32,000 nt of DNA from the NCBI GenBank assembly GCA_054661495.1, contig BAAFSQ010000100.1, forward strand, positions 1-32,000, given 5' to 3'. Under the pieces are notes generated by a model, which had not been told where the DNA came from, searched no databases, and saw nothing but the letters and a program-made list of their open reading frames with translations. Of the stretch, positions 3,180 to 32,000 are shown in pieces. This DNA is from Zygophlyctis sp. KS116 (Eukaryota > Fungi > Chytridiomycota). A program made the position numbers and the translations under genes. The first letter of the stretch is position 1. Every line of letters begins with the position of its first letter.

Positions 3180-4790
3180 ATGCTTAATCCCGCATTGAAC
3201 TATTGGATCTTACTCTCTACAATTTTGCTATTTGCCTTGCCTGCTGTTTGCCGTGAGGAAGAGATTGTAGAAATTGATCATGTTGATTCCCGATCGGGAC
3301 AGGTCTGAGTATTTAGCTGATGATTAGATTTATGATAAACTGGGAAGATCTAGAATATTTCATGGAGTCAATATTGTTTACAAGGCATTTCCATACTATC
3401 CGGACTTGGACAACTTTGATCCGCGGTGGAGTTTCTCAATGGAGGATGTTAATCTATTGGCTGATCTTGGGATGAATATGATCAGACTTGATGTTTCATG
3501 GGCAGGAGCAGAACCCGAAAGAGGAAAGTATAATCAGACATATTTTGAAGTGGTACATAGGATCGTTGATATGTGCAAAAGTCGTGGGATTTACGTACTT
3601 TTAGAGTGGCACCAAGATATTTTCTCTGAACGATATTGCGGTAATGGGGCTCCTCTATGGGCTTCAAGACCACTTGACCGTGGAAATAGATTCGGGTTTC
3701 CTTTTCCAATGGGGCGGCCATTTAAGATTAATTCGTTATCCGGACTTCCGGATGCAAAACAATGCGATAATTTTTTTGTCCTGGGATATGGTAGCTACGC
3801 TCTTAGTCAAGCTTATGAAGATTTATATTTTAATTTTAATGGTATAAGGGACTCATTTGTCGACTTTTGGAAAAAGGTTGCAGTTGAATTTAGAAATTCT
3901 TCAAACGTGATTGGCTATGAATTTATTAATGGTAACTCTATTTCTTTAAAATTAGAGCCTTGGGTAGGCCAATGGGCACATGATCCATTTATTTTGACAA
4001 AGAAAGCAGATCGTACACGTCTTCAGCCATTTTATGAAGCTATATCTAGTGGAGTGAGACAAGTTGATGATCAAAAACTCTTCTTCATTGAATCTATTAA
4101 TATAGATTTGTTTCAAATTGGATTTACTAAATTTCCAGTAGCTCCAGAATACCTTAACAAGACTGTTCTATCTTGGCATTTTTACTGGAATCCACTTGGA
4201 AAACAGAGATATATCAAGGCTAGATTTGATGAAGCCCGTAGATTCCACACTGTTTCTTTTGCATCAGAAATTGATATCAGCTGGAAAGATGGAATCTCCA
4301 AGTTGTAATTATCTTCTTATTTAACAGTCGAAGATTAAACAAAAAAGTTTCGAATACATTAGAAACTATAAAAATGTTGGATAAATACAAAGTATCCTGG
4401 CTTGGATGGGAATATAAGACTTTTGTGAGAAAGACTGGATTTAATGATGGGATTTTCGATGAATCAAATGGCGAAAAGAGATCTGAAGTTCTAAAAGCGT
4501 ATTCACGCCCATACGCACATGCAGTGCCAGGCGTGATTGACTATATGAATTACGATGATGATAGAGGAAATTTCACTTTGATATGGACTGTCCCCCCATA
4601 TTATTCTTCTAAAGGCGCAGTGATATCTACGGGAAAACGTTGGCATTATCCAAAAGGAATGTTGGTTAAATTGACTCCAAACATTTCTGATTCATATCAT
4701 GAAAATGGCGCTATACTATACGTGAATAATGCAAGAAGACAATATCCTCAAACTATAAAGATAGAACTTCTTCGTGCAGATTCATATTAA
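3180..4790 (+). CDS. Secreted GH5 glycoside hydrolase, endoglycoceramidase-like, copy 1
   Basis: Signal peptide; GRSRIFHGVNIVYK, GMNMIRL, WAGAEP, HQD; acid/base GYEFINEP after splicing; nucleophile region FASE; WLGWEYK; YSRPY. Introns 3303-3327, 3932-3955, 4305-4327. Confidence 0.9.
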
Positions 4791-5394
4791 CAATAAACTC
4801 ATTGTATTTCTAGGAAAAACAGCCATTTATTCGCTGCTTACCAGTCAAATTTAGGGGATCCGCTTGTTTACACTGATCAGCCTCTTTCCACTAGGCAATA
4901 CTTGAACTTTATAATGTACTTAAAGATCTTACTCTCTACAATTTTGCTATTTGCCTTGCCTGCTGTTTGCCGTGAGGAAGAGATTGTAGAAATTGATCAT
5001 GTTGATTCCCGATCGGGACAGGTCTGAGTATTTAGCTGATGATTAGATTTATGATAAACTGGGAAGATCTAGAATATTTCATGGAGTCAATATTGTTTAC
5101 AAGGCATTTCCATACTATCCGGACTTGGACAACTTTGATCCGCGGTGGAGTTTCTCAATGGAGGATGTTAATCTATTGGCTGATCTTGGGATGAATATGA
5201 TCAGACTTGATGTTTCATGGGCAGGAGCAGAACCCGAAAGAGGAAAGTATAATCAGACATATTTTGAAGTGGTACATAGGATCGTTGATATGTGCAAAAG
5301 TCGTGGGATTTACGTACTTTTAGAGTGGCACCAAGATATTTTCTCTGAACGATATTGCGGTAATGGGGCTCCTCTATGGGCTTCAAGACCACTT
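3206..5394 (+). repeat. 470-bp identical direct repeat (3206-3675 = 4925-5394) shared by the two GH5 paralogs
   Basis: Identity by eye from gatcttactctctac to gcttcaagaccactt at offset 1719, including intron 1. Confidence 0.92.
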
Positions 5395-6491
5395 ATTCAC
5401 GGGGATAGATTTAGATTCCCGTTTCCTTGGAGTAAAACCAGAGTCGCATTATATCACAATGGGCCAATGAATGAAGAAACATGTTCAGGATTAAATTTTG
5501 CGAATGGATATTTTAATTTTGAACTCTCTCAGGCTTTTGAAGACCTGTACTTAAATTACAATGGGGTCAGAGATTCATTTGTTAATTTTTGGAGAAAAAT
5601 AGCATCTGAATTCAAGAATGAGTCTAATGTTGTCGGCTATGAATTTATAAATGGTAACTTAAATTAAAAGTAATATTAGAACCCTGGGTTGGACAATTTT
5701 GGAAGAATCCGGGGCTGATTTATACTCCAAATGCTGACTTTAATCGTCTTCAACCTCTTTACGAGTTATTACACGAAGCAGTTCGTAAAATTGACACTGA
5801 AAAGCTAATTTTCTATGAACCAGTTCCTGTCGATTTGCAAAAAGTTGGTTTTAAATCTCTTCCTGGCTCTAGTGATCAAAAATCTGTTCTTTCATGGCAT
5901 TTTTACTGGAATCCAGTTGGAAAATCAGCAGTTTTTCAAGGTAGAATTCAAGATTCAAAGAGACTTAATGTTGTACCATTTGTTTCTGAATTTGATATAA
6001 CATGGGATGGATCCTTGAGAAGAAATTTAGAAGTTGATGAAGGGGGCCTTCAAGTCAATGATTCTCTAGATACTATGAAAAGATTAGACTCTGATTTAAT
6101 TTCATGGCTTGGATGGGAATATAAAACTTATATCAAAAAGACTGGATACGGCGAAGGAATTTTTGATAGTATTAATCAAGTTCAAAGACCTGACATGATC
6201 AAACTCTATTCACGACCATTTGCACAATCTGTTTCTGGAAAAATAATTTACATGGATTATGATGATCAAGAGAATACGTTCAAGTTAAGTTGGGAAATTC
6301 CGCCATTTTCACTGTCAAAATCTTCCACTGTTATCTCTACAGGAAGAAAATGGCATTATCCAAATGGAATGGTAGTTACTATAACCCCCAATGATACCAC
6401 TTCGTATCTTTTAAAGGACAATTTGATGTTTGTGAATGCTCAAAGCCGCCAATTTACACAAATTATTAATTTGACATTAACTAGAAAATAG
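4914..6491 (+). CDS. Secreted GH5 glycoside hydrolase, endoglycoceramidase-like, copy 2
   Basis: Same motifs (GYEFINEP, FVSEF, WLGWEYK, YSRPF). Introns 5022-5046 and 5654-5679. Confidence 0.9.
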
Positions 6492-10603: not shown

Positions 10604-10685
10604 TGATCAGAGTGGGGTTCGAACCCACGCCACGTTAGTGAACAGAACCTGAATCTGTCGCCTTAGACCACTCGGCCATCTGACC
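10604..10685 (-). tRNA. tRNA-Leu(CAG)
   Basis: Minus strand GGTCAGATGGCCGAGTGGTCTAAGGCGACAGATTCAGGTTCTGTTCACTAACGTGGCGTGGGTTCGAACCCCACTCTGATCA: acceptor stem GGTCAGA/TCTGATC, anticodon arm ACAGA-TT-CAG-GT-TCTGT, long variable arm, GTTCGAA T loop, followed by TTTT. Confidence 0.95.
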
Positions 10686-23609: not shown

Positions 23610-24183
23610 ATGTTGTTTTTCATCTTCTACATTTCTCTAGTGTCTTCATTATATGGTAATAGTTTTTATTTTATAATGAATAGTTCGGCAATTAGAAACA
23701 AGTTCGCCTCTTCCGCCAGTTGATCCGCCAGTTACAGACCCATCGGTTTCACCAACTGTTACCACAACGACAACAAGTACTACTACTACATCTCCTCCAC
23801 CTCCAACAACAACAACAACGATCCCCCCAACAATCACTTCAACAACCAATACTCCTTCAAGTACGACCATAACTTCCACCTTAACTAATCCGACCACTTC
23901 AAGTACTAGCACCAATATTCAATCACCAATTGTGACTCCATCTGGAACTGGTTCAACTTATACTTTAACTAGCATCAGTACGAATAAGCCAAACGCCACT
24001 TCAACCAATAGTCCTGAATCTGTTGAATCATCAGGCTCTTCTTCGAGTAATAAAGGTGGGATAATAGCTGGTGTTGTAGTGGGAGTTTGTGTTCTTTTAT
24101 CATTAATCTTATTGGCAGGTCTCAAATTCTGGAAGCCAAAAGGAATGTTGAAGGAGCGATTTGAATCTTCAAGGGAGTTTTAA
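23610..24183 (+). CDS. Thr/Ser/Pro-rich single-pass surface protein (Mid2/mucin-like) no. 1
   Basis: Signal exon MLFFIFYISLVSSLY, 28-nt intron 23656-23683, Thr-rich stalk, TM GGIIAGVVVGVCVLLSLILLAGL, short basic tail. Confidence 0.75.
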
Positions 24184-24382
24184 TCTGATTTTTAAAAAAA
24201 TAATACATGATCAATTATTATTGAATAAGATGGAAAACTGGAAAATAATATTTTACCTACTATAGTAATTGTAATAAATTAGACTATTATTCTGGATTCA
24301 TAAAGCGGCACAACACTGTCACGGGGTATCGCCGCAATCTTTATATATCTTTTTCATTTCTAAAAATAGTATAAGAAATAAT

Positions 24383-25083
24383 ATGCAACTCATTTCCAAA
24401 CTCTTCATTATTAGTTATCGTAAGTGTTTCTAATGTTTTAATTGATAGTTATATTCGATAGTTCTCAACAGCCAAAGGGGACCAGGCCTTCCCCATCTCC
24501 GCCAGAATCTCCTCCTCCAGTCTCTGTGTCGCCAGCATCTCCTCCTCCAGTCTCTCCTCCTCCAGAAACATCACCGGTTATAATAAGGCCATCTCCATCT
24601 CCTCCGTCTCCGTCTCCATCTCCTCCTCTCCCATCACCGGTTATTCCATCTCCAACAGATCCTTCTGATGAACCGGGGACCACTTTCATTATTGTTACCG
24701 ACAACGACGGAAGTTCACCAGTTGTTAGAACTGTAATACTCCCACAATCTACTCCAACTTCTAAAGTAAATAATACAGCCTCGAAAAGCTCTTCTGAAGC
24801 CAGTAATTCTTCCAATGTGGCATTGGGAGCTGGTTTAGCAGTTGGAATTCTGTGTCTAGCGATACTTGGAATTTGGATTTTCAAAAAGCAAGTTTCTAAA
24901 TCGGAAGAGTTTAAGAATAGACTCAACAGACCGGGATCACCGCCACCTGCTGCTTATGAGAAAAGTATTCCTTCGAATGGGAGTGCAGAATTGGAACGAC
25001 AGCAACCATTTGGAGGATATGATGCGGACTCTTTTGAATATAACGCTAATCCAGAAGGCAAACCGAAATATGCACTATTTTAG
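24383..25083 (+). CDS. Pro/Ser-rich single-pass surface protein no. 2
   Basis: MQLISKLFIISY, 29-nt intron 24420-24448, SP/PPS stalk, TM VALGAGLAVGILCLAILGIWIF, tail with SEEFKNRL and GYDADSF. Confidence 0.75.
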
Positions 25084-25248
25084 TGAATCAATAAATTCTC
25101 TCAACTTGAAATTCTTAATGATCCATTGAGGACAAACAATCCATTGAGTAATAAACTAGACGTTTAAACATTATGAGACTTATCCTGAGAAACTTAATTA
25201 TGGATTATCATGCGACTTTCAGCATGAACAAGCTGCTTTTGATACAAA

Positions 25249-26310
25249 ATGATGCAGGAGTTAAACAAGTGGAACAATGCTAAATGGAAATATTGGACTT
25301 TGACTATTAAAGATTGTAATTGGAAACCTCCTGGAAGAATTGAAAAACTCTCAAATATAAAATATATCAGAGGACAGCTAGAGTTTTCTAAAAGTCAATA
25401 TCTTTACTGGAAAATTGCCATTCAATATTTTGAGCCAACTAGTGTCTCTAACGTAAGAGATCAGTTTTCAAAGGAAGCGCATGTAGAACCCATATATTCG
25501 CAAACTGAATGGAATTATGTCTGGAATGAAAATTCTTTATGTAAGGGGACTCGATTTGAATTGGGTGATAATTCGGACATGATGAATACAATTTCTGCAA
25601 GAAAGTCAGGATCAGAAGTAAATCCATTTGTGGTTGAAACTCAACAAAAATTAGATATCAATGATTTGGAAAAAAAACTGATAAATATAGCAGAAAATCT
25701 ATACTTTCTTCCAAATGAATTCTTGGAAATATTGTGGAATATTGTTCAAAATGTAGAAATTGATGAAGTAATCGATGCAACAAATTTGAAAGATTTTGAT
25801 AAACTATTGGGTGTAGAATCACCAAATATGATTGATCCTTTAAAAACAAATTTTGAAATTCCAAAGAATCAAGGAAAAGATCAGGATATTCAAGAGCTTG
25901 AAAAATTGGTTCAATTAATTCATTCAACAAATTTAGAAGATTATGATGAATTTCTGGAAATGGAATCTCAAGATATTGCAAAGTCTTTAGGGCTGGTGAC
26001 TCCTCCTTCAAAGAGAACCATTGGTTTTCCTAAAAATCACGGAAAGAAATGGCAGGTTATAGATATTGAAGATTTGGATAAGGATTTAAAATCAGATTTT
26101 ACTCTTGAAGAAATTGCTCAAAAATTAAATCGGACAAAGAAATCAATTCAAATTAAAACTTGTGAATGTGCAATCAGATTAATCAATAGTGGAGTTTGTC
26201 CTGAAAGGGTGATTCAGCTTTACAAGAATAAGGTTGACATGAAAATGCTAATCGACCATCTGGTATACAGAAATTTAAGTACAAGTAATAAAAGACCAAA
26301 AACAAAATGA
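25249..26310 (+). CDS. Chimeric protein: CRESS-DNA-virus Rep-like HUH endonuclease domain (altered motifs) plus repeated Myb/HTH-like C-terminus; putative endogenous viral element-derived gene
   Basis: aa 11-106: YWTLTI (motif I), YIRGQLE, YLYWK (motif II position), AHVEP, YVWN (motif III position), GTRFELG. C-terminus PKNHGKKW..TLEEIAQKLNRTKKSI. No Walker A; intronless. Confidence 0.75.
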   Translation: MMQELNKWNNAKWKYWTLTIKDCNWKPPGRIEKLSNIKYIRGQLEFSKSQYLYWKIAIQYFEPTSVSNVRDQFSKEAHVEPIYSQTEWNYVWNENSLCKGTRFELGDNSDMMNTISARKSGSEVNPFVVETQQKLDINDLEKKLINIAENLYFLPNEFLEILWNIVQNVEIDEVIDATNLKDFDKLLGVESPNMIDPLKTNFEIPKNQGKDQDIQELEKLVQLIHSTNLEDYDEFLEMESQDIAKSLGLVTPPSKRTIGFPKNHGKKWQVIDIEDLDKDLKSDFTLEEIAQKLNRTKKSIQIKTCECAIRLINSGVCPERVIQLYKNKVDMKMLIDHLVYRNLSTSNKRPKTK

Positions 26311-26479
26311 TTTAAGTTTTGTATTTAAATCTAAATTTGTGAACTAATTAGTCTCATGTCCGAATACTAAATCAGTAGAAAATTATTTAACCTGAAAGAG
26401 AAATTTCTCTATCAGCTCATTGTCGGGTGGTGAAATAAATGCCCGATGAGAACAATGCAACATTTAAGAAAAAAACAAA

Positions 26480-26837
26480 ATGAAATGGATCATCATTCTC
26501 ATTAGCTTTTGTAAGATTATCAACATAAAATTAATTATAGTTGTTCTGATAGTTGTTGGCCAAGCAAATAACACTAGTGTTGCGCCTCCACAAGCTACAT
26601 CAAACAGCACACCATCCCCAAAGGTAATGATGAATCTTGTCGGACTTAGAACCTCACCATCAAACAATACCGCAACATCATCATCGCCAAATGCACCAAG
26701 TCCTTTGGTCTGGGGCATTATCATTGGAGTGGGCATACTTCATTTCTGTTGCGATCATACTGTTTAGAAAATATTCTAACAGGATATCGCAAGAGGGTCG
26801 GGTTACATCTGTTAGGCTCCTATCAGAGCTAAATTAA
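26480..26837 (+). pseudogene. Frameshifted, shortened paralog of surface protein no. 4
   Basis: Near-identical upstream region, signal exon and 30-nt intron (26511-26540) to the gene at 27513. The TM segment switches frame (WGIIIGVGI.. / ..FISVAIILFRKYSNRISQEG), with a stop at 26767 in the first frame. Confidence 0.6.
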
Positions 26838-27512
26838 TATAGGAATTTAATAGTAAGTGGGCGTATTCGGCGAAAAAAACGCACGCTCGAACTGATTACG
26901 ATGTACAAATTTGAGCCATGAGTGCTTCCAATGATTAAAGAACAGCTCTGACAGACCGCATTACAGCCCAAAAAAGTGATGAAAATATTGATTTGACAGA
27001 GGAAATTCTTAAACTGAATAACTTGTAGTTTTCTCAAAGAAGGAAGTATATATAGCTGAATTTATGCTCATAGATGTTTTCGAGGGAAGAGATATGATCG
27101 GACTTAGAAGTGGGAATGGTTCGGTGAATGATAGAACAATTGGGGCAGCAGCTTGGGGAAATCTTAAACGTTCTGAACAAAAAGAATGGGAACAAAAGGA
27201 ATTATTTTATAACTTATTGGTAGAAGAAGTAGCTATGATTCATTAAATTTCATACATCTCCAATACACACAAAATCATGGGTTAGTTCGAGCGTCACATT
27301 TTATTCGCCGAAATCCGCCCTTGACTGGGGTTTTTGGTTTTTGTTGTGGTTCCTATATATTCAAATGTATAAATAAGATGGTTGTTATCGTATTTGAAAC
27401 TTTTCATCTTAAGCCTATTTTAAATTCATGATGAAAAATTCAACCAACGGATGCATTGTTTAGTGAAATAAATGCCCGATGAGAACAATGCAACATCTAA
27501 AAAATAAACAAA

Positions 27513-28283
27513 ATGAAATGGATCATCATTCTCATTAGCTTTTGTAAGATCATCAACATAAAATTAATTATAGTCACTTTGATAGTTGTTGGCCAAGGAA
27601 ATAACACTAGTGTTGCGCCTCCACAAACTTCACCTCCACCAGCAACCTCCAGCCCGCCTCAACCACCACCTCCTCCTCCGCCTCCACCAACATCATCCAT
27701 TCAACCACCTCCTCCTCCGCCTCCACCAACATCATCCATTCAACCACCTCCTCCTCCGCCCCCACCAACATCATCCATTCAACCACCACCTCCTCCGCCT
27801 CCACCAACATCATCCAACCCTCCACCGACATCTGCTCCACGACCTTCTTCAACTCCTGCCTCCAGTCGGACGAATTCTGGTCAACAGGGTACTACTACTA
27901 TGACTGATTTAACAACTTCTACAACTTCTACAACTTCACCATCTTCAACATCAAACCAAGCCTCATCATCGTCATCAAATGCTTTGATCGTGGGAATTTC
28001 AATCGGATTAGTTTTACTTGTCCTAGCAGTTGTTGGAATTATGATTTTTAGAAATGGAATGAATGGATTATCTAAAGCTGGTAATGATTCTGAATCTCAA
28101 GGCCATGAATTGACTCCAGTACAGTACCAGCGTCAACAGGCGTCAACACCGATAAGAGAAGGCAGTTTTCAGTCTCAACCCGCACAGACACCACCGAATG
28201 GTTATAATGCTGATTATTTTGATTCACAAGGAAATTTCAGTTATGATTCACCTCGAGCTAGAAATACTGGCGCATATTTATGA
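27513..28283 (+). CDS. Polyproline/Thr-rich single-pass surface protein no. 4
   Basis: MKWIIILISF, 30-nt intron 27544-27573, FTLIVVGQ; repeated PPPPPPPTSSIQ; TM ALIVGISIGLVLLVLAVVGIMIF; tail GYNADYF. Confidence 0.8.
   Translation: MKWIIILISFCKIINIKLIIVTLIVVGQGNNTSVAPPQTSPPPATSSPPQPPPPPPPPPTSSIQPPPPPPPPTSSIQPPPPPPPPTSSIQPPPPPPPPTSSNPPPTSAPRPSSTPASSRTNSGQQGTTTMTDLTTSTTSTTSPSSTSNQASSSSSNALIVGISIGLVLLVLAVVGIMIFRNGMNGLSKAGNDSESQGHELTPVQYQRQQASTPIREGSFQSQPAQTPPNGYNADYFDSQGNFSYDSPRARNTGAYL
27660..27830 (+). repeat. 36-bp coding minisatellite (about 4 units encoding QPPPPPPPPTSSI-like peptide)
   Basis: Repeated caaccacctcctcctccgcctccaccaacatcatccatt-type units. Confidence 0.9.
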
Positions 28284-28380
28284 TCAGCTACTTTAACTAT
28301 TAAATAAATTTTCTGATAACAATGATATTATTATTTCTAGTGCATTGGCGGATGTATTCATTATTGTCCAGAAGGGTTTA

Positions 28381-29388
28381 ATGCCAAAGATCCCCATTAC
28401 AGTATTTACAGGATTTCTAGGAGCTGGAAAGACGTCAATCATTCTTTCTTTGTTGAACTCATTACCCAAAGAGTACAAACCAGTTCTACTTAAAAATGAA
28501 TTTGGAGACGCTAATGGTACCGATTTTTAATAAAAATTAGTTGATAGTAGACTGGCAAACGAACAAAATATTAAGGTTTCTGAAATGATTAATGGCTGCT
28601 TGTGCTGTGTTTTGGTCGGTCAAATGAAGAATGCGCTTTATGATCTAAAGGAATTAAGTCCTGATCGGATCATTATCGAAACTTCAGGATCTGCATTCCC
28701 TGCTCCTATCGCTTGGCAAATAAGAGAGTTGGAAGACGACTTTGTATTAGATGCAATTATAACTGTGATTGACGTTGTATCATTTACTGGATATTCGGAC
28801 ACAAGTTATACAGGTATTAGAGAAACTATTTGACTCACTTTAGCACGACTGCAAGCTCAGTATACAGATCTGATCATTATGAACAAGCATGAACTAGTCA
28901 CAGAAAGAGAATTTGATTTAGTTTTAGATTCTGTCAACGATTTAAATTTGGACACCCCAAAAGTAAAGTTTAGTCTAAAAGATGGGATATCTTCTGATGT
29001 GGTTTTTGGAATAGACACTAAATTATTTGAGCTTGCCAACAGGGAGGAGCAAGCAGTTGAATTTACGCTGGAAAGAGATCACCACGAAAACGAAGTTGAT
29101 GTAATTAGAATAAAGTATGACTCAGGACCGGACTGGTCTCAATCAGAATTGGATACGTTTCTTTCTTCTCTTTCGGTTGAATATTATTATAGAGTCAAAG
29201 GCGTGATAAGATTTGGAACTGAAGTCTATATTCTCAATTGGGCTTTTGGGAGATATTCGTTAACGCAAGCTACAAAAACTTTTAGTGAAATCTCAAAAGT
29301 GCATTTGAATATTATGGGTATAGATCTCAAGAATACAGTTCAAACTTTAGAAAAATCATTCGGAGCAGGAAACGTAATTCTTATTTAA
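28381..29388 (+). CDS. COG0523/CobW (Zng1-like) metallochaperone GTPase
   Basis: IPITVFTGFLGAGKT, NEFG, GCLCC, IIIETSG, NK motif, YRVKG. Introns 28517-28540 and 28814-28843. Confidence 0.9.
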
Positions 29389-31009
29389 CTACTTTCTTTT
29401 CCCGCTTCTTGTCCCCCCATCAAACAGGCTATCAGAGCAGCTCCCTGACCTGAACCATCTCGTGCTATGTTCAAACTATAATATTATATTTACCTTGAGC
29501 CAGAACAATGTTCTCAGCCGTTATACCTACAACTTCCCGAAGCGCATCTTTCATTCGATTCGCATAATGTGGATAATTAACAAATACACTACCATCAATA
29601 GCCACAGTACAATCATTCAATCTATTGATTTTTGTAATAATAGCTGCTATCCCTGCTGCTGCTAACCTTGCCGAACGAGTTCCGACCAACTAAACAATTA
29701 TGTTAATAAACTTTACCTCACAAATTCGTTTGACAGCACGACGATCATCAAAAGATGTAAAAGGAACTTTGAAAAGATCCTCCAAAACTGCCTTTGTGTC
29801 TGAAAGTTCCAAGGAATGATCTCTTTCAATTCGTGACATGTGAGACGTGTCTATAGAATTTTTGGTCTCCAAAACTTTTGATGAACACCCGGAAAACAAT
29901 TCACCAGTTGATATAAGATCTACAATAACTAGTCTAACTATTTCTCCCAAATATAGACCCGAAATCATCTTTTCAAACCGTTGCTAAATTCAGGCAGATG
30001 ATTATTACCTCTTTTGGATGAGCAGATTCTCTATCCAATTGTAAATCATAAGGTGTAATAGGAAGTACTACCGATTCATTATCAAAAGCTCCCCATTCCA
30101 TATTCACAATCATTTCCCCAGTTGATGGGTTTGGCCCTTCCCATTTTGGTATCTCTTCAATCCTTTCTAAATATGCTGCATTAGTTCCAGTACCAATAAT
30201 TGCACCGATATATGTTGAAGGATCAGCATAAGAATGCGCAATCAGTGCGCCTACAGTATCATTGACAATTGCAGTAACTTCTACAGACAACCCCTGTCTC
30301 GTTAAAGCATCTTGAAGAAGCTTTCCAATATCCTGCCCTTCAACCCCTGATGTATTAAATCCTTTAGTCCATTGTATAAGATATGCATTCTTTATATTGA
30401 ACTGCTTGCAAGGAAATGAGAATGTGAATCCCAACTGACGAAAAGAATCTTGTTGTATTCCATTTTCTACAAAGAAATCAACGATTGATGCAGCAAAAAA
30501 ATCAAACAAATCCTCACCTTTCCCAGTTCGTAATTTTTCTGATACAACAAACTTCTTTTGTAGCATTCGGACTATAATTGAGCGTAAAACAACTTACCAG
30601 AACCATTTCCTTCGAGATTAACTTCGCAAACTCTAAAATTCGTTCCGCCAAGATCCAAAGCCAAATAAAGACCTTTTTCCTGTCCAGTTGCTCTTCGTAT
30701 TACATGAGATGGAATCATCCTGAGTGTAGAGTCAGGAAAGCTCAATCCCCGCACCATTTCTTTCACAAAATGCTTGACCATTTCATGAAGTTTGGATGTA
30801 GGAACTGACAGCAGAGATTCAAGTCGGGTCAGTGTGTCTTCATTGATACTTCCTCTGGACCGACGTGTTGAAGTCGAGCGATGTTTCGATGCGTTATTGA
30901 CATCTTCAGTTTTGGTAGATTTTAAAACACTCAATAAAAACACAGCGGTTGAGGCTATTACAATACCTGTAGTAACACCAAACATAAAGTTGAGTCTATC
31001 ATTGTTCAT
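29385..31009 (-). CDS. Hexokinase with N-terminal hydrophobic segment
   Basis: LALDLGGTNFRV, LGFTFSFP, WTKGF, VNDTVG, IGTGTNAAY, NMEWGAF, FEKMISGLYLGE, DGS, DGSGQGAAL. Introns 30572-30597, 29984-30008, 29690-29716, 29465-29493. Confidence 0.95.
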
Positions 31010-32000
31010 TTAAAGCTTTCAATCCGAACCCAAGCCCAGTGGGCGTCGTCAATGTTCCTAGCGCTCGTCTCCATTTTCGACTCATCATATTTAAACCAAT
31101 CTGAAAAGATGCATTCATCCATCCAAATCCTTCCTTGACGACATACTTAAAGTCAGCACCGACATTCCCATATTCTACATCAACTTTGTGTGTCATGTTT
31201 ACAATATCAAACTTTTCAGGAATGACTCCATTAAAGTCAAAAAAGGCTTTTGTGAGCGTATATAACCAACGATAAGCTACACGATGTGCATCCTCAGTAA
31301 ATCCATAATTTAAAAGGCCGTTCCAAGCTAAAATCTAAGGTTAAAAATCAATGATAATTACTTGATGTGGAGCCCATCCAAACGGATAATCCCACCTAAA
31401 ATTTATCTAAAATATAAATTACTGTCGATTTGGTCTATCTACTCCTATTCTACCTCGAGATCTTTCAGTCCCAGAAACTAGACCACCTTCAACTTCGAAA
31501 AGAGAAAGTGCCACAGGTACCATTTTTTCAGCTTGTTCTTTACTAGCTACATTTGACCAAAGGGCCCAAAAGCATGTTACTGATTCATACTTTATTTGCT
31601 CTTTTTTAGAAGTGTCATAGTCAAAATATAAGGACTTTTCAGGATTCCAGAGGTATAAATCGATCTGATCTTTAGACTTTTTTGATAATTGTGAGAATAA
31701 TGATGAATGCAAATAAACCGTAAAATAATTATCTCCGCTTGGGCCTTCTTCCATCAATACTAGTTCAAATTCCTTCTGATGGTATCCATGGCGGTAATCC
31801 TCGTCTGCATCATCATCAAATACCTTTATTCCTTTTGCCCAAGATGAATCCCAGTTTCCGTGATTTCCTATAGAGCCAGTGACTCCCTTTTCACGTATCA
31901 TTTTTTCCCACACTTTGTAAGATTCTAAATAGATATCGTCTTTGCCTTTACGAACATGCAGCTTAATAGAGCTATCAAAATGTTTCGATAGTATAGCTGA
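30999..32000 (-). CDS. Neutral trehalase (GH37, NTH1-like), 3' portion; 5' end lies beyond the window
   Basis: YLWN..YFDYD, YESVTCFWALW, GGLVSGTE..RQWDYPFGWAPHQ (introns 31396-31422 and 31335-31361), EYGNVG..EGFGWMNAS. Confidence 0.92.

Follow-up and report, generated by a model that had tools for sequence, protein, structure and literature searches.

Gene content of the locus

The stretch of DNA analysed here, 32,000 nt in length and referred to as the window, carries at its end the 3' part of a neutral trehalase gene, followed head-to-tail on the same strand by a hexokinase gene (Table 1). The 5' part of the trehalase, where an N-terminal Ca-binding domain (PF07492) would be expected, lies beyond the window end. 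In a Pfam search, the trehalase family was recovered with an E-value of 5e-20 in each of two exons, and the last exon shares 74% identity with a chytrid nth1. From the EGFGW motif onward the protein has a tail of 44 aa; tails as short or shorter occur in 18 of the 114 homologues bearing this motif, and the length is normal. By Pfam and homology, the enzyme is an ordinary member of the fungal neutral trehalases (Nth1, GH37).

The hexokinase gene has four introns of 25–29 nt, and Pfam places both the Hexokinase_1 and the Hexokinase_2 domain in its one frame. Residues 8–26 are likely a membrane anchor, as predicted from their hydrophobicity, which recalls the plant type B hexokinases. Within this segment, in the first approximately 25 residues, there is an FG-x-T-T-G-like motif that lies 5–21 residues past the protein's own Met in 40 hexokinase homologues and nine residues past it in the window hexokinase; this conservation supports the first ATG (31009) as the start. 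The protein is an ordinary member, by Pfam and homology, of the chytrid "hexokinase A" group with a hydrophobic N-terminus. In a quick hexokinase tree, it groups with the hexokinases of the metagenomic locus L001 and of P0005 and P0006 (support 97), and FastTree places it with P0006, P0005, and P0261 (100), beside Batrachochytrium salamandrivorans (97). The best named homologues of both the trehalase and the hexokinase are from chytrids, and the DNA likely belongs to an uncultured chytrid resembling Rhizophydiales.

Several other features were observed in the window. Two tandem duplicate GH5 genes (3180–4790 and 4914–6491), which we take to be endoglycoceramidase-like, have near-identical 5' parts and diverged 3' parts, a pattern resembling the one left after recent gene conversion or assembly collapse. 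A series of Ser/Thr/Pro-rich genes occupies 23610–28283, each with a likely single membrane span by prediction; the genes at 26480 and 27513 have their N-terminus in common, and an intronless frame of 353 aa (25249–26310) inside the series has no Pfam match at E 0.01.

Table 1. Coordinates of the features discussed (positions in the window)
Feature	Position	Strand	Basis or remark
tRNA-Leu(CAG), between two protein genes	10604-10685	-	
Neutral trehalase gene (Nth1-like, GH37), 3' part	30999..32000	-	Pfam PF01204; homologues named nth1
Trehalase exons	32000-31423, 31395-31362, 31334-30999	-	spliced frame runs uninterrupted to a single stop
Trehalase intron, 27 nt, GTA..TAG	31396..31422	-	exons join in frame; intron at same place in L001
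Trehalase intron, 27 nt, GTA..TAG	31335..31361	-	exons join in frame; intron at same place in L001
ATG-free stretch of trehalase tail, most plausible site of hexokinase transcription start (inferred)	31010..31073	-	
Proposed 34-nt intron, rejected	30996..31029	-	splice score, L001 comparison, X18 contig
In-frame TAA immediately 5' of hexokinase ATG, closing the hexokinase frame upstream	31010..31012	-	
Coding sequence shared head-to-tail, 11 nt, from hexokinase ATG through trehalase TGA	30999..31009	-	sequence and X18 contig
Hexokinase gene, 505 aa	29385..31009	-	Pfam PF00349 and PF03727; spliced model with single terminal stop
Hexokinase exons	31009-30598, 30571-30009, 29983-29717, 29689-29494, 29464-29385	-	
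Hydrophobic N-terminal hexokinase segment, residues 8-26	30932..30988	-	mean Kyte-Doolittle 2.07; common to chytrid hexokinases
Second in-frame hexokinase ATG (Met9), 13 nt past trehalase stop	30983..30985	-	private to window sequence
4-nt convergent overlap, hexokinase stop and CobW-like gene stop (+ strand)	29385..29388		

The junction and its counterpart in a relative

The preliminary description of this DNA had claimed that the two coding sequences overlap by 11 nt, and this holds: the trehalase frame ends in ..LKALNEQ with a TGA at 31001–30999, directly followed by a second stop (TAG), and the hexokinase ATG stands at 31009–31007. The next hexokinase ATG, described there as close behind the trehalase stop, is found at 30985. 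It encodes Met9, a position occupied by Leu in L001 and by Met in none of the 40 motif-bearing homologues; Leu-to-Met is a common substitution.

The spacing is extreme for this DNA. In gene models drawn up by hand, the window has 13 further tandem gaps, which span 97–745 nt with a median of 135, and both the −11 of the window pair and the 49 nt of its counterpart in L001 are smaller than all of them, the overlap being the extreme of 14. The convergent gaps in the same models, in which one stop was placed 2 nt off, are about 136, 68, 51, and −4 nt, the last being that of the hexokinase and the CobW-like gene, so that the hexokinase overlaps a neighbor at each end. The introns of 24–30 nt, the median tandem gap, and this second overlap at the 3' side together mark the genome as compact.

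The region 27500–32000 was compared with contigs from four runs, three of RNA libraries and one of DNA. One contig of the RNA-library run X18, which comes from a study other than that of the possible source run X1, matches 30873–31168 with no differences and no gaps at a depth of 3.4 and crosses the junction unspliced; the window sequence is therefore no assembly slip. Such libraries can contain DNA, and the contig may be RNA or DNA. It is compatible with overlapping transcripts as well as with one bicistronic RNA, as a contig over two genes does not amount to a single transcript. A contig of run X19 stops at 30598, the exact end of the first hexokinase exon, with two of its 285 letters unplaced, which weakly suggests that this run contains spliced RNA. 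No RNA contigs covered 31169–32000 in the RNA-library runs. At least half of the sampled sequence words occurred in 8 of the 24 runs listed, seven of which are freshwater or lake metagenomes and one the possible source; the small shares in runs X18–X20 were set aside as regards habitat.

It is scarcely conceivable, given these data, that an assembly error, a frameshift, or stop read-through yields one long frame. The assembly is environmental and the two frames are one base apart, which would suit such a reading, but the independent X18 contig matches exactly, and in L001 the two frames are separated by a stop and a spacer. The TAA right before the hexokinase ATG and the doubled trehalase stop led us to reject both +1 frameshifting and stop read-through.

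A scan of metagenome contigs gave eight loci, among them L001, in which a trehalase 3' end is followed by a hexokinase on one strand without overlap: its TGA lies at 610–612 and its ATG at 662, leaving a spacer of 49 nt. L001 and the window share 92% identity over the last trehalase exon and 70% over the first 138 hexokinase residues, and only nine of 38 four-fold sites are identical, which means that silent sites are saturated between them. Against this background, the seven trehalase codons at 31037–31019 specify the same residues in L001, six of the seven through silent changes, and hexokinase codons 2–4 differ by two silent changes and one D/E exchange. Being conserved as protein, both stretches are likely translated. 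In the simplest history, the window lineage would have lost approximately 54 nt, comprising the old stop and the spacer; an insertion in L001 is the alternative, and parsimony alone picks the direction. Two distant hexokinases, L002 and L004, have no trehalase within the 2012 and 785 nt available upstream; L003 and L005–L008 have less than 125 nt upstream of the hexokinase, and L009–L010 are prokaryotic loci with no hexokinase match. The viral contigs searched gave no match.

Expression of the two genes

The overlap is real, and the two ordinary enzymes are very probably not fused. The locus is probably best understood as two genes that share 11 coding bases and that likely give two separate proteins from overlapping transcripts. 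The preliminary description had offered a spliced fusion, a bicistronic or reinitiation transcript, and a hexokinase promoter located within the coding part of the trehalase gene; the last of these is, by inference, the most likely, the bicistronic or reinitiation transcript is unlikely, and the spliced fusion is not supported by the evidence that follows.

A spliced bifunctional trehalase–hexokinase had been proposed through removal of a 34-nt GT..AG segment (31029–30996). The segment is present, its removal brings both frames into register, and its acceptor scores well (6.2 bits); elsewhere, hexokinase was found joined to G6PD domains in five of the long representatives scanned. The same description had called its donor and length atypical, and so they are: the donor is GTT and the length 34 nt, whereas all 26 hand-picked window introns start with GTA and measure 24–30 nt. 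A splice model was trained on these 26 introns with leave-one-out scores; six of them are fixed by homology in the trehalase and hexokinase genes and the remainder come from low-GC candidates, which makes any GC comparison of introns partly circular. The segment reaches a total score of 5.0 against 9.0–19.4 for the introns, below all 26, and as high a score is reached by 7 of 156 GT..AG decoys taken from within coding exons; a GT..AG of this kind is within chance expectation. As an outside check of the model, the three homology-fixed introns of L001 score 10.6–14.0. As a side observation in this ultrashort-intron genome, the acceptor AAG is used by 3 of the 26 window introns, and GAG occurs in L001.

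The comparison with L001 also speaks against splicing: the proposed donor GT reads CT there, and the conserved trehalase tail codons and hexokinase start codons described above lie partly or wholly within the proposed intron. No splice joint was found among the contigs of the four runs, and the low-depth X18 contig crosses the site unspliced, although contigs lose rare forms and a rare isoform could escape them. The search for GH37–hexokinase fusions in other proteins was likewise negative: none of 397 proteins matched both enzymes by BLAST, the two Pfam families did not meet in one protein among the best 120 of 172 and of 359 matches, and among the best 150 of 5099 representatives, a scan of 28 long proteins revealed hexokinase in duplicate or joined to other domains, but never to trehalase. 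Fusion would, in addition, make the hydrophobic hexokinase anchor internal. A spliced fusion through this segment is very improbable. The G6PD–hexokinase fusion proteins among the representatives are P0282, P0305, P0307, P0344, and P0377.

Fusion routes were also sought in L001. A two-intron route (602–627 and 645–673) is in frame, with scores of −2.4 and 3.5 and a GC content of 38%, and was rejected; four single-intron routes would need introns of 55–103 nt, beyond the intron size range. The 645–673 stretch contains a GTAAGT donor-like word in the spacer with an in-frame AG 29 nt on, and it scores low.

With two overlapping transcripts as the preferred reading, the following mechanism may be proposed. 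A deletion in the window lineage would have removed the spacer together with the former trehalase stop, with the result that translation of the trehalase stops three codons inside the hexokinase frame. The hexokinase would have its own transcription start within the last approximately 65 coding nucleotides of the trehalase. Transcripts of the trehalase would then have to terminate inside the hexokinase gene or pass through the whole of it, and on such read-through RNA the hexokinase frame would stay mostly untranslated. Upstream of the hexokinase ATG, the 937 known nucleotides of the trehalase mRNA contain 27 ATGs, the last at 31074, which makes scanning to that ATG on the trehalase mRNA implausible. 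Since neither leaky scanning nor a conserved UGGGA is supported, an own hexokinase start between 31073 and 31010 is the best inference. The 100 nt before the hexokinase ATG hold six CpGs, where coding tiles average 1.8; with seven in 30900–30801, this patch, a putative promoter mark, may not be special. On the sense strand, no AATAAA or ATTAAA occurs from the trehalase stop to 29300, a weak sign, as approximately two are expected by chance; such words are found within 80 nt of the stop in 10 of 21 other genes, and also in 12 of 98 coding tiles. The spacer of L001 has a GC content of 45%, above all 19 window post-stop stretches (14–41%, a comparison across species), and in this it is unlike a terminator. 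The missing words and the GC-rich spacer make some read-through RNA plausible.

Trehalase and hexokinase catalyze consecutive steps, from trehalose to glucose to glucose-6-phosphate, which favors an operon-like bicistronic mRNA, on which ribosomes finishing the trehalase would restart at the ATG at 31009 or 30985 and so couple both enzymes. Stop and start are near each other in the window (−11 nt) and in L001 (49 nt), the L001 spacer lacks any ATG as well as a terminator-like composition, the polyadenylation-type words are missing past the trehalase stop, and the pair probably persists at approximately 62% protein identity. The private Met9 also favors it, being the first in-frame start available to a ribosome that has passed the trehalase stop; initiation there would retain the hydrophobic anchor of the hexokinase. 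Against it, eukaryotic ribosomes reinitiate inefficiently once they have translated a long frame, and leaky scanning needs few upstream ATGs where at least 27 are present. UGGGA is absent 40–90 nt before the window trehalase stop, the nearest copy being at 31170, and the copy at 557 in L001 is not kept in the window. The stop–start geometry, too, differs between the two species. On balance, a bicistronic mRNA is unlikely, and were it nevertheless present, fungi would have a novel way of expressing genes in the manner of an operon. A bolder form, in which a freshwater chytrid clade has a true trehalase–hexokinase operon with one mRNA and a restart after a trehalase frame of approximately 750 codons, helped by the new ATG, is improbable; if true, it would be a nuclear, translationally coupled fungal metabolic operon that depends on no leaky scanning and no viral TURBS.

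Linkage in other chytrids and comparison with known systems

The preliminary description had raised conserved linkage as a further question, and the answer is divided. Linkage is found at the DNA level in L001 and probably in a third, more distant case: the JGI trehalase fragment P0234 and the hexokinase P0006 each lie on a contig of 2601 nt, with 477 nt left over, and are approximately 62% identical to the window proteins, from which a shared contig and the same orientation are inferred. For the hexokinase P0005 (contig 9836), no trehalase partner was found among seven matches. Linkage was seen in none of the 13 named chytrids with both genes listed (Polyrhizophydium among them), as judged by contigs of differing size, a count weakened by paralogues and unlisted matches. 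Batrachochytrium stands outside this count, its trehalase and hexokinase accessions coming from different species.

These data also bear on whether the pair is a selected two-gene unit, in which two monocistronic coding mRNAs are made and the amount of hexokinase is adjusted by trehalase transcription crossing the promoter of the hexokinase, through interference or shared chromatin. This idea differs from the two overlapping transcripts preferred here solely in its claim of selection. The gene order is kept in L001 despite the saturated silent sites, and probably in P0234/P0006, and interference with the downstream gene has been proposed for fungal read-through pairs (PMC4503453). The linkage may be passive, depending on the background rate of gene-order conservation in the clade, and the 13 named chytrids show none of it; selection on the pair is rather improbable.

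The noteworthy part is that the genes of two consecutive enzymes are linked in a conserved and exceptionally close arrangement in a chytrid clade. If the likely history is correct, the locus documents how a coding overlap arose in a compact fungal genome when a spacer was lost, a relative having kept the state before the overlap. The pair offers a test locus for RNA-level coupling of trehalose breakdown and glucose phosphorylation in zoosporic fungi. In annotation, a gene caller could wrongly fuse or truncate the two genes. In the non-subscription literature, no title was found on adjacency, clustering, or a bifunctional pair of trehalase and hexokinase in chytrids, and none on this pair under chytrid overlapping transcripts, polycistronic Chytridiomycota, or compact short-intron chytrid genomes.

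Several known systems resemble the locus in part. Viral termination–reinitiation (TURBS) depends on a UGGGA motif 40–90 nt before the stop (PMC3542737), and for green algal bicistrons, leaky scanning is reported as the mechanism (PMC11291117). The window pair shares with both a start codon a few bases from the upstream stop (PMC3542737; PMC11291117). Unlike TURBS, it has no conserved UGGGA and a stop–start geometry that differs between relatives (PMC3542737), and unlike the algal bicistrons, it has many ATGs upstream of the second frame, which are not depleted (PMC11291117).

Microsporidia are described as showing transcription overrun into neighbors in compact genomes, and in E. cuniculi true coding overlaps are rare, with 120 of 129 annotated overlaps vanishing once starts are corrected (PMC2803860). 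The compact genome, the tiny introns, and the transcripts presumably forced into neighbors are like those of microsporidia; unlike in the E. cuniculi overlaps, conservation supports the first ATG here, and gaps of about 130 nt are typical (PMC2803860). In Agaricomycetes, read-through transcription units are reported to consist of tandem same-strand genes in which upstream termination signals are weak or missing; the genes are also transcribed independently, and some pairs hold their order in relatives (PMC4503453). The trehalase–hexokinase pair, which unlike the units described there involves a coding overlap, consecutive enzymes, and a chytrid host and is known from DNA and short contigs, resembles them in its conserved adjacent order on one strand (PMC4503453).
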